DNA of 64,000 nucleotides, taken from the NCBI GenBank assembly GCA_040753555.1, contig JBFMDZ010000001.1, forward strand, positions 12,693 through 76,692. The letters are read 5' to 3'. The notes under the pieces were generated by a model, which had not been told where the DNA came from, did not search any database, and was given only the letters and a program-made list of their open reading frames with translations. Position numbers and translations under genes: made by a program. This document shows, piece after piece, positions 7,209-12,770 of this stretch. Numbering within the stretch: the stretch's first letter is position 1; each line of letters starts with the position of its first letter. This stretch comes from a bacterium (GTDB lineage Bacteria > UBA9089 > UBA9088).

Positions 7209-7438
7209 ATTTACTTTTCTCGTATATGTTTAGGTGGCTAAAATTCATTTACCTTAATAGACTCTTTAGACTCTACAGGCTTTCCTTAAATATTAGCTAA
7301 ACACATACAAAAAGTTCAAGCGTAGTTTGGGTAACCCAAGGCCAACCCTGGTTCACCCATGCCTACACCTCTCCTTTAAGTGCTTTTGCCAAATACATTT
7401 GTGAAAATGATTCATTATTTTTCTTTGCCATTTTAATC

Positions 7439-8602
7439 CTATCCTATTAAAAAATCTTTAGTAAGATATTCTTCAGAAACTTTCTTTTCTGCGGGTAAAT
7501 ATATTCTCACTTGAATATCTAATTTTGATAAATACTTACACATTAAAGCTCCAACATCTTGCCACTTTAAATTCCCAAGTCCACAGCCAAGTGCAGGCAA
7601 AGCCAGAGACTTTATCCCTTCTTTCTTATAGTTATCAACTATCCAATTCAACCCTTTTTCAATCCCTTTGATATCTCCACCTTCTTTCCAATGTTGTTTA
7701 GTTGGAAAAAGTAAAAACCATGTCGCACCATTTCCATTTTTTAAGGTAGATGGCTCATCAGCTAATTGATAATCAAGAGAACCTTCTCGCTTGTAAAGAT
7801 ATGGTTTCCCCATTTGTAATGTATGATTTCTGCATACATATTGATATTGAACATAGACATCGGGAAACTGCCATTTTGCACGAGAGGCAAGACCTTTTCC
7901 CATAATACCAATGCAATTAACACTAATTGTAAGTGTTTGCATTCTTGAAAAGAACATATCTCCGTCTGTTACATATAACAATGGGGTAATTTCTATCTCA
8001 CGAGAAGGTTTGAAAAATATATTTGGTTGGGGAACAACAGATATAGGGAACGATGATAAAAATTCTTTTATTTTATTAGCAATATTATGATCTGCCACAT
8101 AAATCGTATGAATATATTCTGGTAAAACCATTTCTGGAACAAGACACTCTGCCATTATTTTCCTTTTATCGCCGCTTTCTTCAGTCCACCATTCTTTTTC
8201 AAGTATTTTTGTTAATTCATTTAGTAGTGCCTGCTTTCCTTCTTTAGCTGGAAGTATCTCTGTAGCAAAACTAGCTGCATTACCGGTTGAGATAAAAATA
8301 TCATCACGGTTCAAAATGTCTTTCTTAACCGCAATAACTACAATATCTTCAATGGGTTTTTCGCATATAACCCTATATAACATAGGATTTCGTGGTTGAA
8401 AATATAGGTTTGCAAAATCCCACAAATTTTTACCATTTAATAAAATTTTATTACGACGACTTGCTATAATTTCTTTATCATAAATTGGTGTATAGTTGAT
8501 TCGGCGTTCTTCCACCTGATGATGAGATAAAATGCCATAGTTTAATATGGAAGACAAATTATCAATATGTGTGATATAATATAAATGTTTGATTGACGCC
8601 AT
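7439..8602 (-). CDS. Fusion protein: DarT-like ssDNA ADP-ribosyltransferase domain (DUF4433) plus TARG1/DarG-like macrodomain.
   Basis: N-terminus LYYITHIDNLSSILNYGILSHHQ...LYFQPRNPMLY matches the DUF4433/DarT signature. The C-terminal ~170 aa align to the TARG1/DarG macrodomain (ISVNCIGIMGKGLA..., WFLLFPTKQHW, LALPALGCGLGNLKW, IQVRIYLP). Confidence 0.6.
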   Translation of the reverse strand: MASIKHLYYITHIDNLSSILNYGILSHHQVEERRINYTPIYDKEIIASRRNKILLNGKNLWDFANLYFQPRNPMLYRVICEKPIEDIVVIAVKKDILNRDDIFISTGNAASFATEILPAKEGKQALLNELTKILEKEWWTEESGDKRKIMAECLVPEMVLPEYIHTIYVADHNIANKIKEFLSSFPISVVPQPNIFFKPSREIEITPLLYVTDGDMFFSRMQTLTISVNCIGIMGKGLASRAKWQFPDVYVQYQYVCRNHTLQMGKPYLYKREGSLDYQLADEPSTLKNGNGATWFLLFPTKQHWKEGGDIKGIEKGLNWIVDNYKKEGIKSLALPALGCGLGNLKWQDVGALMCKYLSKLDIQVRIYLPAEKKVSEEYLTKDFLIG

Positions 8603-9223
8603 TTTTCCTCCTAAATTTCCAATATTACACCCGCATCATTGCCAAATATGTCCACCACCCGCACAGCAATGGTTCTATTCTTTCTCTTATCCAGTGTTTC
8701 TGTTGCGATGATTGGGACTGTCTTTGCCTTTTTGCCATTTTCCCTGAATACCTGCCACTAGCTTTTGAAGGTGCAGCCATCGTAATCCCAGTCAATTGCC
8801 CAGTAATCTATTAAAACAGCGAAATTGTCCTTTGCCACCTTCATTAAAGCATTATAAGTTTCTTGCTCTCTGGCTGATGTTCGGCTAACCGTAATGTCCA
8901 TTAAGGCATATGTAAATAAGATTTATCTTGCCTTCATATCCTTGAGCAAGGAGGGCTTGCATTGCCAGAAGATTATCGCCCCAGATAAGCCTATTCATCT
9001 TTTGCTTATCAATCTCTTCTTCACCCAATAAACCATCAGTGAAAGATATAAGAATCTGTCTTTTATACTGCGGGTTTGGAATAACCACCTCTGCTGTCTG
9101 GAATTCTATATCCTTTGGATTAGGTGCCCTTCTTGGCTTTGTATCCCAAACCAGCCTTGCACTATCCTTTTTCCTCTGATTATTGCCATTAGCCATCCTT
9201 ATCTCTCTAATATTTCCTTCCAA
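8603..9223 (-). pseudogene. Internally deleted remnant of an N6/N4 DNA methyltransferase (RM-system mod-like).
   Basis: 8885-9223 encodes an MTase N-terminus (NRLIWGDNLLAMQALL...GKINLIYI) that ends prematurely. 8603-8880 encodes out-of-frame C-terminal MTase-like pieces (TVPIIATETLDKRKNRTIAVRVVDIFGNDAGVILEI). The catalytic core is absent. Confidence 0.5.
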
Positions 9224-9969
9224 TAGGGGTCAAATCTCTCTTTAGCAGATTGTAATGAGGGAAATTGTTTTTCGCAGACATCGCTAAAGCGTGCTAGGAC
9301 GCGGCGGTTGATTTTTTCCTGATTTTCAAAAATAGCTGTAGCAACAAAGGGAACTCCAAATTTCTCATATTGAAGACAGGTTATGGTAGCATCCCGACAT
9401 CTATCATTATTTAAAACAGCAAAAACAAAAAGTGGCCGTTTTGCTCCATTAATCCGACAATCAACGATATATTTTTTTGCTACATCGTGTTGGAGATCGC
9501 TATAATTAAATACTCGCCTATCCTCTGGTATCTTTTCCTCTAAAAGGGCTTTAAAATCTTCAAGGAATGCTCCTCGCACACCCTCTTTTGTCCAATAAGA
9601 AATGTCTGTTATCTTAATTAGCCCTTGAATAAAACTATAAAGGGCATCACCATAATTTTCATTTTCAATATAAGCCCTTAACTCACCTTCAATATTTTTG
9701 ATTTTGTAAGACCCAAGAACTGTATCTATAATTTTAGCCCGTCTTCCTTTTTCAATATCAATTTCATCATAACTTATATGCATAAAAGTATGCCCCTCAT
9801 CGCTTAAATACCAATGTCCATTTTCTTGCTTTAAGAGAATGGGCAGGTGGTCTCCATCATCAAACATAAAGGGAGTAAACACGATATACCTGTCTATCCC
9901 TTCGCTTTCAAGACTAATTTTTTCGCAAACCTTTTGACGAAATATTTGGACGATAGTTTCAGGTATCAT
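9199..9969 (-). CDS. Hypothetical protein, DUF1828/DUF1829-like. This family is often linked to RM loci.
   Basis: 256-aa ORF recalled as DUF1828/1829-like; no defining motif was identified. It overlaps the MTase remnant. Confidence 0.3.
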   Translation of the reverse strand: MIPETIVQIFRQKVCEKISLESEGIDRYIVFTPFMFDDGDHLPILLKQENGHWYLSDEGHTFMHISYDEIDIEKGRRAKIIDTVLGSYKIKNIEGELRAYIENENYGDALYSFIQGLIKITDISYWTKEGVRGAFLEDFKALLEEKIPEDRRVFNYSDLQHDVAKKYIVDCRINGAKRPLFVFAVLNNDRCRDATITCLQYEKFGVPFVATAIFENQEKINRRVLARFSDVCEKQFPSLQSAKERFDPYWKEILER

Positions 9970-10293: not shown

Positions 10294-10944
10294 TTATTTT
10301 ATTGAAAGGGAATGAGCCAATCTTAAAGGCTCAGGGATTCTAAATTTAAGAGAAAGTTTTAGGATAAATTCTTTTGTCTCCTCCAGGGTTATCTTATATC
10401 CGGGTGAAGCAAATACAGGTGCTACATTATCCCTTGTTCTTAAAACTATACCGATTGCCTCTTTATTCTTTTTTATAAAGCAAAATGAGCCTTTTTTCTT
10501 ATCTATCTTTCCAAAATCTCCAAATAGATGGCTCTTTGCACATCCTATTGATGGCTTATCCAAAAGGATTCCAATGTGTGTAGCCAGACCCATTTTTCTT
10601 GGATGGGCAATACCCTGTCCATCAAAGAGAAAAAGATTGGGTTCGCTCTTTAGCCCCTTTATCGCCTCTAAGATACAGGGTCCTTCACGAAATGAAAGAA
10701 AACCTGGAATATATGGAAAACCTACCTTTGTCTTTAACTTTACTTCCTCTACTACCTTAAGTTCAGGAAAGTTTAAAACAACAATTGCACAACAACCATA
10801 TTCATCCCTAAATGCTACATCAACGCCAGCAACTGATACTACCTCTTGCTCAATCTTTTTTAAGACAATCCTCTTTGCAAGGTTTTTCTGTATCCTTTTT
10901 GCTTCATCTATGGCTACATCAAATGGATGAAGATTAAAGTATTT
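10294..10944 (-). CDS. nfi: Endonuclease V.
   Basis: The full-length alignment is readable: GVDVAF...YIPGFLSFREGP...DGQGIAHPRKMGLATHIGILLD...LRLAH. No ATG/GTG/TTG start exists upstream of the internal Met at 10593, so the start is uncertain. Confidence 0.6.
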   Translation of the reverse strand, partial: KYFNLHPFDVAIDEAKRIQKNLAKRIVLKKIEQEVVSVAGVDVAFRDEYGCCAIVVLNFPELKVVEEVKLKTKVGFPYIPGFLSFREGPCILEAIKGLKSEPNLFLFDGQGIAHPRKMGLATHIGILLDKPSIGCAKSHLFGDFGKIDKKKGSFCFIKKNKEAIGIVLRTRDNVAPVFASPGYKITLEETKEFILKLSLKFRIPEPLRLAHSLSIK

Positions 10945-11017
10945 CGTAACTATTTTTAGTATTTATGCAAAATATAATATCATTTTTAAGATAAAAAAGC
11001 AAGGGCTTTCACAAAAA

Positions 11018-11212
11018 TTAGAGGCTTCGGTTTCTATTGTTTCTTGTCCATTCTTTAACTATCCATTCTCCATAAATGTTAATAAGTTTTTCTTTACACA
11101 TCTTAAGTCGTTTTGGAGTATACATCTGTGGCGCCTGATGAATCTTTCTATGACAGGTTGGACAGACAACTATAAGATTATCCTCTGTATCTGCTCCACC
11201 TTTACATTTTAG
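11018..11212 (-). pseudogene. HNH endonuclease C-terminal remnant.
   Basis: The reverse strand encodes ...KCKGGADTEDNLIVVCPTCHRKIHQ... There is a stop immediately upstream and no N-terminal region. Confidence 0.4.
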
Positions 11213-11308
11213 TACTATTTAGGTGCCGTAATAATCGTTGTTTAAGGAGCGAATTTTAAAACAGACTTTAGTAGAACCACCAGTATTATCTAACAAAAGG
11301 AAAATATC

Positions 11309-11572
11309 CTAAGGAGATATTTCAGAATAGGAAACCCCGCAATCAGGACAGGATAGGGAGGATGAAAAAACAAGCTCATCCCTTCCAGCAAGGACAATAA
11401 GGCTTCCCTTTGAAATGGCTATTCCTGTCTCAACAGAGCCAGAAAGCCCGGTGATTACTGTGAGCTTATTCCTTGGGATTTCTACATCAATATTCTTAAG
11501 GTTATGCTCCCTAGCACCTTTGATAATAATATTTTCTTTCATAATCCTAAAAAGACAAAAAGGTCTCCTCAA
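11309..11572 (-). pseudogene. uvrA: UvrA remnant. The N-terminal 35 aa are fused to a zinc-finger fragment; the rest of the ~940-aa protein is deleted.
   Basis: [32 protein letters not shown] is followed directly by ...[13 protein letters not shown]. Confidence 0.55.
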
Positions 11573-12770
11573 GCCACATTATGTATCCTTTTATATCTTG
11601 ACTAAAGACATCCTTTGATAAAGGGAAATCTTCTTCACACAAAGAGACTATTCTTCCCTCTTTAATCTTTAATTTAGAAAATAGATCCTTGAATCTCTTT
11701 ATTGGGTCTGCCATCTTAAGATTAATGGTCTTGGACATCTTAAATTCAACAGGATACAATGCCTTATCCCTTTCTATAATCAAATCAATCTCTAATCCAT
11801 TATGGGTTCTTAAATAGAAGAGATTTGGTCTTTGTCCATGGTTAAAGAAGAACTTAACTGTCTCCTGGATGCAATAATTTTCAAAAAGGCTTCCTGCCAT
11901 TGGCCCTTTTATCAAATGCCCCTCATCCTTTAATCCTGTGAGGTAGCAGACCAAACCGCTGTCTAGGAAATAGACCTTTGGGTTTTTGGTAATCCTTTTT
12001 CCCAGATTCTGATAATAGGCTGGCAGAAGGTAAATTAGCTGGCTTGCTTCCAATGCAGAAATCCACTTTTTAACGGTATTTACTGCTACCCCTAAATCTA
12101 AAGAAAGGCTACTTAGATTTAAAACTTGGGCGCAACGGCTGGCTAATAGCTGTAAGAATCTCTGAAAATCCCTTAAATTACCTATGTTATAAAGAGAGCG
12201 AATATCCCTTTCTAGGTATGTAGAGATATAACTTCCATACCAACGAGAAGAATCCCTCTTTTCAAGGCAAACTTCAGGGAAGGTTCCTTGTAGACAACTA
12301 TGGATAAAATAGTCCTGGCTAGTCATTGATTTTAGAAAGGAGATATTTTCTATCTCCCCTTTAGCAAATGGCAATAAGACTAAAATACCAACCCGACCAA
12401 CTAATGTTTCGGTTAGATTTTTCATCAAATTAAAGGCACAAGAACCTGTCATAATGAAACGACCCTTTTTTTGCCTATCTTTATCAATAAGCATCTTTAT
12501 AAAGGAGAGAATTTCTGGCACATATTGAATTTCATCAAATATTACCCTATCTCCTGCTTTTTCTAAGAAGAACTTTGGGTCTAAAAGTGCCCTTTCTCGT
12601 AATAACGGGTCATCAAAGGAAAGAATTTTATGCGACTTGGCAAAGATATGTGCAAGTAAAGTAGACTTTCCTGTCTGCCGTGGGCCAGTTAAGACAACGG
12701 CAGGGAATTCTTTAACAAAGGCTTTAAGTGATTCCTCAATTTGACGATGAATATACACCTTCTTTACCAT
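11547..12770 (-). CDS. AAA+ ATPase with DUF4143 domain (COG1373 family).
   Basis: [16 protein letters not shown]-loop, 407 aa. Confidence 0.7.

Follow-up and report, generated by a model that had tools for sequence, protein, structure and literature searches.

A single polypeptide joining a DarT-type ADP-ribosyltransferase domain (DUF4433) to a DarG/TARG1-type macrodomain is encoded on the minus strand at positions 7439-8602 of the DNA analysed here, a stretch of 64,000 nucleotides (the window) from contig JBFMDZ010000001.1 of the bacterial assembly GCA_040753555.1. The protein is a single-chain DarTG of the family represented by Protein Data Bank (PDB) entry 7OMU, an abundant architecture that was already known by 2021 at the latest. 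The best explanation of the gene, in which we have good confidence, is that it specifies a self-contained DarTG that would ADP-ribosylate single-stranded DNA (ssDNA) reversibly, and that it forms an autonomous, mobile module of the defence or selfish kind. A preliminary description, made from the sequence alone, had already recognised both domains in one chain, and this structural reading stood: the 387-residue open reading frame (ORF) matched both domains in Pfam, PADLOC and NCBIfam. Two further elements of that description, the option of an inactivated toxin and an implied novelty, were not upheld.

Architecture and occurrence of the fused protein

The gene and its parts were delimited as follows (aa, amino acids; ARTT, ADP-ribosylating turn-turn).

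7439..8602, minus strand: single-chain DarT-macrodomain ORF, 387 aa plus stop codon (ORF list and translation)
8607..8612, minus strand: Shine-Dalgarno sequence AGGAGG, 4 nt 5' of the ATG of the fusion (read from the sequence)
8012..8590, minus strand: DarT ADP-ribosyltransferase domain, aa 5-197 (Pfam, PADLOC, Foldseek)
7973..8011, minus strand: linker between the two domains, aa 198-210, short and conserved
7472..7972, minus strand: DarG/TARG1-type macrodomain, aa 211-377 (PADLOC, NCBIfam, phmmer, Foldseek)
8279..8281, minus strand: codon of N108 (STGNAAS), predicted base-coordinating position of the ARTT loop (alignment with DarT1 and DarT2)
8147..8149, minus strand: codon of E152, predicted catalytic glutamate of the ADP-ribosyltransferase (KRKIMAECLVP), present in 45/45 homologs
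7697..7699, minus strand: codon of K302, predicted catalytic lysine of the macrodomain (FPTKQHW), aligned with K80 of Thermus aquaticus DarG (FPTKKHW)

The ORF starts with ATG and has no internal stop codon; its strong Shine-Dalgarno sequence is overlapped by the TAG (8611-8613) that closes the frame of an upstream methyltransferase (mod) remnant. All motifs quoted in the preliminary description were located in the translation, with YYITH at residues 8-12, YFQPRNPMLY at 67-76, GIMGKGLA at 232-239, FPTKQHW at 299-305 and GCGLG at 339-343. The N-terminal part matched the Pfam DarT family (PF14487) at residues 8-197 and over the full length of the profile (1-201/201, E = 2.2e-44, 152 bits against a cut-off of 22.5), and the PADLOC DarT profile at residues 5-197 (E = 3.6e-38). 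The C-terminal part matched Pfam Macro (PF01661) at residues 300-351 (E = 2.9e-7, 30.9 bits against a cut-off of 22) and the PADLOC DarG profile at residues 211-377 (E = 6e-45). Chance cannot account for matches of this strength. The DarG profile match was confined to profile positions 4-152 of 329, that to NCBIfam antitoxin_DarG covered positions 3-156 of 338, and the protein ends 10 residues past the macrodomain; the C-terminal, DarT-binding domain of DarG is absent from the fusion, as had been described. DarG was not among the most frequent families encoded by co-oriented immediate neighbours at 80 homologous loci, and the neighbours in the window carry unrelated domains.

The closest structural counterpart was a crystallised single chain. 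A phmmer search of the PDB aligned residues 4-386 with residues 23-404 of 7OMU_A (E = 1.5e-145, 56% identity), an entry deposited in 2021, released on 2021-06-23 and entitled 'Thermosipho africanus DarTG in complex with ADP-ribose'. An AlphaFold2 (AF2) model built on 45 homologs (pLDDT 87.4, pTM 0.85) had 7OMU as its best Foldseek match, with TM-scores of 0.89 on the query (TMq) and 0.91 on the target (TMt) and a root-mean-square deviation of 2.5 A over 386 columns. Since the superposition extended over the whole chain, the predicted folds and their mutual arrangement match those of 7OMU. The T. africanus protein therefore resembles the present one in architecture, length, domain order and catalytic residues, and likewise lacks the DarG C-domain; it differs in coming from a host of the Thermotogota, rather than an uncultured bacterium of roughly 35% GC, and in the alanine that its crystal construct carries in place of E152; no further difference emerged from the comparison.

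Among individual domains, Foldseek placed the DarT part nearest to DarT2 of Thermus sp. 2.9 (7OMV, TMt 0.77), followed by DarT of Mycobacterium tuberculosis (7YK3, 0.71) and DarT1 of Escherichia coli C7 (8BAQ, 0.66). The macrodomain was most similar to that of T. aquaticus DarG (5M3E, TMt 0.87), and phmmer recovered the macrodomains of DarG from T. aquaticus (5M31, E = 4.8e-19) and M. tuberculosis (5M3I, E = 1.3e-18). Human TARG1 (C6orf130) shares the macrodomain subclass and the catalytic lysine (TMt about 0.78; phmmer E about 7e-7 at residues 282-368), but it is a stand-alone eukaryotic protein of about 22% identity with no transferase attached.

The fusion was found to be widespread. In a database of 5.8 billion proteins the 120 best clusters all comprised proteins of 374-414 aa at 95-100% query coverage and 57-100% identity, most of them carrying both PF14487 and PF01661. 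A scan of contigs from the Genome Taxonomy Database (GTDB), at one genome per species (185,579 species genomes), returned at least 541 relatives; the search patterns lay in the macrodomain, so that these need not all be fusions, but the best 80 loci all encoded full-length fusions (53-85% identity). The majority of these 80 belonged to Chloroflexota, and the remainder included Bacteroidota, Ignavibacteria, Planctomycetota, Acidobacteriota, Cyanobacteria (Anabaena, Dolichospermum, Nostoc), Aquificaceae, Thermodesulfobacteriota, Omnitrophota, Elusimicrobiota, Verrucomicrobiota, WOR-3, Aerophobetes and two metagenome-assembled genomes of Halobacteria. After clustering at 50%, the fused architecture still had considerably more than 20 representatives, down to about 33% identity; DarT domains as a whole gave 7,581 matches. 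Six relatives of 440-610 aa (P0163, P0167, P0174, P0177, P0180 and P0186) matched the query in two stretches, with the macrodomain far C-terminal, and may represent fusions of DarT and macrodomain that have acquired an extra region in between.

The search for the DUF4433-Macro architecture that the preliminary description had proposed thus located it in many phyla, and the exact protein exists at NCBI (P0001) as a 'DarT ssDNA thymidine ADP-ribosyltransferase family protein'. That the fusion was already known rests on the title and date of the PDB entry and on this database annotation; a full-text literature search found no paper describing it, nor any account of how a fused toxin and eraser is silenced or switched, or of its target base. 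Entry 7OMU was described, together with structures 7OMV-7ON0 of DarT from Thermus sp. 2.9, by Schuller et al. (2021, Nature 596:597). The gene is a further member of a family with a crystal structure and automatic annotation, and not a new system. Single-gene fusions of this kind, which are common in environmental phyla, above all Chloroflexota, may escape defence-system annotation that looks for darT and darG as two genes.

Because the window derives from a metagenome-assembled genome, it was considered whether the ORF might be an artefact of assembly or a frameshift that had joined two genes, as the preliminary description had allowed. This explanation carries next to no weight, and the two-gene reading is excluded. 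The independent assembly of a sequencing run yielded an identical gene; the same continuous ORF occurred in all of the 120 best clusters and 80 best genome loci, and 7OMU was crystallised as one chain of the same span. The junction itself is conserved: across 45 aligned fused homologs, which share 57-85% identity with the query and underlie all residue conservation given here, F197 was invariant, while P193, F196 and P199, just before or within the linker, were nearly so. The linker was modelled with a pLDDT of about 91-95 (residues 181-210), and beta-strands were predicted at residues 201-206 and 209-213. The possibility that an internal start allows the macrodomain to be translated separately was rejected, there being no Shine-Dalgarno sequence at a workable distance, and the candidate start residues M216 and M221 were not conserved and were replaceable by leucine. 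Base composition was unremarkable, and a scan for promoters and terminators between 7150 and 9300 produced nothing that exceeded shuffled expectation.

Catalytic residues and the target base

Both halves of the protein retain the residues on which catalysis would depend. In the DarT domain R49, R71, N72, M74, K146, R147 and E152 were identical in all 45 homologs, and H12 and Y67 in 44 each. E152 corresponds to E160 of T. aquaticus DarT, where an alanine mutant is non-toxic (PMC5179494); in DarT1 the detoxifying mutation is likewise an alanine, at E152 of that protein (PMC11543638). The crystal constructs of 7OMU, DarT2 (7OMV) and DarT1 (8BAQ) each carry alanine at the position aligned with E152. 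R49 aligned with the arginine that abstracts a proton (R51 in DarT2, R52 in DarT1), although this equivalence is less certain, the alignment being gappy there.

In the macrodomain the invariant positions were N229, the loop G232-A239 (including K236), K302 and the glycines G339, G341 and G343; W305 occurred in 44 of the 45 sequences and H304 was conserved. Their counterparts in T. aquaticus DarG are N22 for N229, K29 for K236, K80 for K302, H82 for H304, W83 for W305 and G119 for G341. Four of the Thermus positions have been mutated (N22A, K29E, K80A and G119E) with a marked reduction in activity, K80A abolishing both hydrolysis and antitoxin function (PMC5179494). The catalytic Glu of DarT (E152) and the catalytic Lys of the macrodomain (K302), which the preliminary description had singled out for checking, were therefore present without exception, as was R49 of DarT.

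The option of an inactivated toxin was rejected on this evidence, since the active-site residues of both domains are invariant or nearly so; both enzymes look active. It is very improbable that the DarT half has lost its activity and survives as a relic beside a macrodomain that works alone, for instance as a repair enzyme against ADP-ribosylation. Beyond the position of the gene among pseudogenes, nothing specific speaks for a relic, while the Pfam match to DarT is full length, conservation of the DarT half equals that of the macrodomain half, with the seven DarT residues listed above unchanged in every homolog, and the alanine in 7OMU is the usual means of detoxifying an active DarT.

Canonical DarTG2 systems (T. 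aquaticus, M. tuberculosis and enteropathogenic E. coli) share with the fusion the DarT fold with its catalytic Glu, Arg and Tyr, a DarG-type macrodomain with its catalytic Lys, a macrodomain that suffices as antitoxin by itself (in the case of T. aquaticus), and the habit of residing in restriction-modification (R-M) operons. They differ in comprising two genes and a C-terminal DarT-binding domain, where the present system is one polypeptide without that domain. DarTG1, which pairs the guanine-specific DarT1 with a NADAR domain, resembles the fusion in its DarT fold (TMt 0.66) and in an NAAS motif with a base-coordinating Asn. It differs in its eraser, NADAR rather than a macrodomain, and in having a Ser where the fusion has Tyr, as well as a catalytic Asp after the Arg that the fusion lacks. 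No match to a NADAR domain was found in the fusion protein with Pfam, PADLOC or NCBIfam.

The target base is most likely thymidine, judging from the type of eraser and the motifs around the pocket. The macrodomain is of the DarG/TARG1 type, and DarG-type antitoxins remove solely the adduct of their cognate toxin (PMC11825919). The motif YFQPRNPMLY aligned with YFCPRSPMLY of Thermus, which places Y67 on the DarT2 tyrosine (Y71) that coordinates nicotinamide. The catalytic Asp of DarT1 has no counterpart: the family consensus has no majority residue two positions after R49. Finally, W305 is conserved, and its equivalent in T. aquaticus DarG, W83, has been proposed to stack on thymine (PMC5179494).

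Several features weigh against so simple an assignment to DarTG2. The ARTT-loop residue that coordinates the base is His119 in DarT2, where it forms a hydrogen bond with the thymine carbonyl, and Asn104 in DarT1 (PMC11543638). The corresponding residue of the fused family is N108, conserved in at least 90% of members, which shares its column with N104 of the guanine-specific DarT1 (PTNAAS) and with a histidine in DarT2 of Tolypothrix (TDGHA); thymidine specificity is accordingly not secure. In addition, the DarT domain was about equally distant from the two types, at only 22-27% identity (27% to DarT1, 22-24% to DarT2), and both NCBIfam equivalog models scored below their cut-offs (toxin_DarT 95.2 bits against 150; antitoxin_DarG 140.7 bits against 250). 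On these scores and identities the fused DarT domains form a separate clade. Lastly, compared with DarG of T. aquaticus and M. tuberculosis, the macrodomain carries a conserved stretch of about 14 inserted residues (KREGSLDYQLADEPSTLKNGN).

Together, these features could mean that the fused DarT modifies another base or substrate, such as guanine or a different nucleophile, with a macrodomain that has co-evolved, and that the fusions represent a distinct, third class of DarTG. We regard this as unlikely. The DarT of Meiothermus also has Asn at the N108 column, yet its partner, in a type I R-M operon, is a complete DarG with both domains, so that Asn alone is no proof of a different base. The residue occurs in stand-alone relatives of the fused family too, and the division between His and Asn consequently does not follow that between macrodomain and NADAR. 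Y67 is of the DarT2 type, the Asp of DarT1 is missing, W305 is retained, and the predicted structure is nearer to DarT2 than to DarT1 (TMt 0.77 against 0.66). With thymidine as the favoured target, the exchange of Asn for His in the pocket provides a concrete, testable hypothesis on the target base.

Genomic context and role of the fusion

To look for a partner gene, 3,896 flanking ORFs of at least 50 aa were collected from the 80 loci and clustered by all-against-all BLASTP, and the loci in each cluster were counted. No cluster was present in more than five of the 80 loci, save alternate-frame ORFs inside the fusion gene itself; the fusion is a single-gene, autonomous module. Three homologous loci viewed singly had unrelated neighbours, including a beta-lactamase and parA/parB.

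The recurrent context was that of R-M genes, in which the fusion was nested at 11 of the 80 loci (about 14%). Nesting was of a type III-like kind at L006, L007, L039, L049, L056 and L075. At L039 (1973-9247) the genes on either side of the fusion, each separated from it by about 10 nt, encode an N6_N4 methyltransferase of 1,005 aa and a ResIII protein of 1,028 aa; a Res gene follows immediately downstream at L007, L056 and L075, and a Mod gene precedes immediately upstream at L049. At L041, L043, L057, L066 and L068 the setting was of the Eco57I type, the order being a 224-aa ORF resembling MmeI-type methyltransferases, the fusion, and an Eco57I-family methylase of about 515 aa. The Pfam families found most often among the 110 co-oriented immediate neighbours were ResIII (10), DEAD (9), Helicase_C (7), Eco57I (4) and N6_N4_Mtase (3), the remaining families being metabolic; PADLOC agreed, with matches to REase_III, MTase_III and type IIG systems. 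The R-M genes were not homologous between loci (the mod and res fragments of L006 matched L049 alone, and weakly), which suggests repeated, independent insertions and not one inherited operon. Canonical DarTG has been reported within type I R-M operons (PMC5179494), and the Meiothermus plasmid locus mentioned above was of this kind; the placement of the fusion between mod and res extends that observation.

A mechanism can be proposed. The N-terminal domain would transfer a single ADP-ribose from NAD+ to a base in ssDNA, with E152 and R49 as catalytic residues, and the C-terminal macrodomain would hydrolyse the adduct, with K302 as its catalytic lysine. Writer and eraser would be held at a fixed 1:1 ratio, and the DNA of the host itself would be kept clean enzymatically, with no sequestration of the toxin. 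Such self-protection is plausible because the macrodomain of T. aquaticus DarG by itself rescues DarT toxicity (PMC5179494). As toxin and antitoxin form one chain, the toxin cannot be activated by the antitoxin being degraded more quickly; what is assumed instead is either a change in the relative activities of writer and eraser or an allosteric trigger. There is a precedent for control of this sort in a fused toxin-antitoxin defence protein to which a phage protein binds, releasing the toxin (PMC11481870). In such proteins too a toxin and a neutralising domain share one chain and activation does not depend on antitoxin turnover, but their folds and chemistry are unrelated, and the present protein would neutralise its toxin by undoing the damage enzymatically.

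The module would be horizontally mobile and accessory, landing repeatedly in R-M operons, and its role is probably one of defence or selfish maintenance. This is favoured because the fusion has a sporadic, cross-phylum distribution at high identity, lacks synteny, and is nested among R-M genes. Some of the evidence runs counter to it. The immediate neighbours at about 85% of loci were mostly ordinary metabolic or housekeeping genes, and the defence role accordingly rests on a minority of contexts. Among 2.9 million viral contigs there was one close, full-length copy (L086, 54%); a few further copies were found at 31-36%, and most matches concerned the macrodomain only. No fused copy was identified in the plasmid collection, where all 116 matches were below 60% identity and those listed spanned two adjacent annotated genes, DUF4433/DarT and macro. 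Four plasmid regions that were opened proved to be two-gene systems, for example those of Tolypothrix, Meiothermus and Bacillus cereus. It was at one point supposed that Bacillus plasmid pairs had macro-only antitoxins; this was wrong, the B. cereus partner being a full DarG of 341 aa. The literature search, moreover, found no activity data for any fused member.

Given these neighbourhoods, the same two enzymes might serve a housekeeping or regulatory purpose, placing reversible marks on host ssDNA (e.g., at the origin) and so tuning replication or growth, a role that has been suggested for DarTG of M. tuberculosis. DarTG has been stated in general terms to control replication and growth (PMC11543638). 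Consistent with such a role, 110 of 141 immediate neighbours were co-oriented with the fusion and 81 of 141 lay within 100 bp, and one locus directly followed parA/parB. A few loci adjoined DNA-repair helicases: an XPB-type helicase with DUF790 (Bax1-like) at 2/80 loci, and an MrfA-type helicase (MZB domain) at another 2/80. These helicases may reflect a link to the repair of DNA adducts, but they are too few to judge. Vertical inheritance in a stable context is what one would expect of a core regulatory gene, whereas the fusion is scattered (at least 541 relatives in 185,579 species genomes), highly similar across distant phyla and without conserved synteny, and the copy in the window lies in a patch where R-M and HNH genes are decaying. 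A regulatory function is for these reasons considered improbable, although the metabolic neighbourhoods and the few repair helicases leave room for a role in regulation or DNA metabolism. The 'self-limiting enzyme' and the 'regulatory DNA marking' of the preliminary description are inseparable by computation.

A broader interpretation would combine the peculiarities of the pocket and of the context. The fusions would then be a third class of DarTG, single-chain and operating without antitoxin turnover or sequestration, whose Asn pocket might recognise another base or motif, and which would be coupled to type III and IIG R-M operons, for example with ADP-ribosylation acting together with self/non-self discrimination based on methylation. 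We hold this combination to be rather doubtful.

The surroundings of the gene in the window

The following features were identified around the fusion, all on the minus strand.

7310..7431, minus strand: remnant of a type III res N-terminus, defined by nucleotide homology with L006, which ends at 7310
8614..9223, minus strand: decayed, type III-like mod remnant in several frames, directly upstream of the fusion
9199-9969, minus strand: DUF1828 protein, 256 aa, upstream of the fusion in a patch of variable and decaying genes
about 10294-10962, minus strand: endonuclease V, full length and intact (PF04493, profile 2-197/198, E = 2e-67)
about 11021-11218, minus strand: broken HNH endonuclease remnant (…GGADTEDNLIVVCPTCHRKIH…), matching the second half of the PF01844 profile alone (E = 5.6e-7)
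11309-11572, minus strand: 87-aa ORF, a UvrA-like N-terminus joined to a CPDCG segment, by reading alone and with no Pfam match
11547-12770, minus strand: DUF4143/AAA_14 ATPase, 407 aa, in the same variable and decaying patch

The history of the locus was clarified by comparison with L006, the closest genome relative among the best 80 loci (85% protein identity). In L006 the fusion is preceded by a fragment of an N6_N4/type III methyltransferase and a short ORF resembling Abi_C, and is followed by an N-terminal piece of a ResIII protein, 147 aa long. Its mod ORF matched PF01555 (E = 5e-21) and PADLOC MTase_III, and its res ORF, which contains ATGSGKT, matched PF04851 (ResIII, E = 5e-5). Nucleotide homology with the window extends over the fusion plus about 130 nt of res (8613-7310) and over two pieces of mod, at 9206-9066 (82% identity) and 8912-8759 (77%). 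The mod pieces of the window are in different frames, and the ORFs there had no Pfam match. On the opposite flank, the ATG of the res remnant is found 5 nt past the last base of the stop codon of the fusion, and its frame closes after 22 codons, the remnant reading MAKKNNESFSQMYLAKALKGEV, a stop codon, and then AWVNQGWPWVTQTTLELF.

The comparison with L006 indicates that the fusion was nested in the order mod-fusion-res and that both R-M genes have since decayed around an intact fusion. The persistence of an intact, well conserved fusion while mod and res decayed argues that the fusion is selected on its own. As a separate observation, L006 has an 83-aa ORF (1103-1354) between the mod fragment and the fusion that matches the C-terminus of Abi_C (E = 1.6e-6); this segment is absent in the window.

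The preliminary description had also placed the gene beside decayed R-M and HNH remnants. The type III remnants do flank it directly, and the broken HNH gene, in which a stop codon precedes the match, is about 2.4 kb upstream. Endonuclease V was initially taken to be truncated, on account of a 99-aa ORF at 10294-10593; this was rejected once the frame was read further upstream and proved full length, and the gene is not part of the decay, although no ATG, GTG or TTG occurs in its first 123 codons or so. Neither the DUF1828 nor the DUF4143 gene recurs beside the fusion in other genomes. An Rfam scan of the whole window found no family at gathering score, whether tRNA, rRNA or riboswitch. Downstream of the fusion are the housekeeping genes DUF72, nitroreductase, truA and gmk. 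The 87-aa ORF on the upstream side is probably an internally deleted, UvrA-like fragment.

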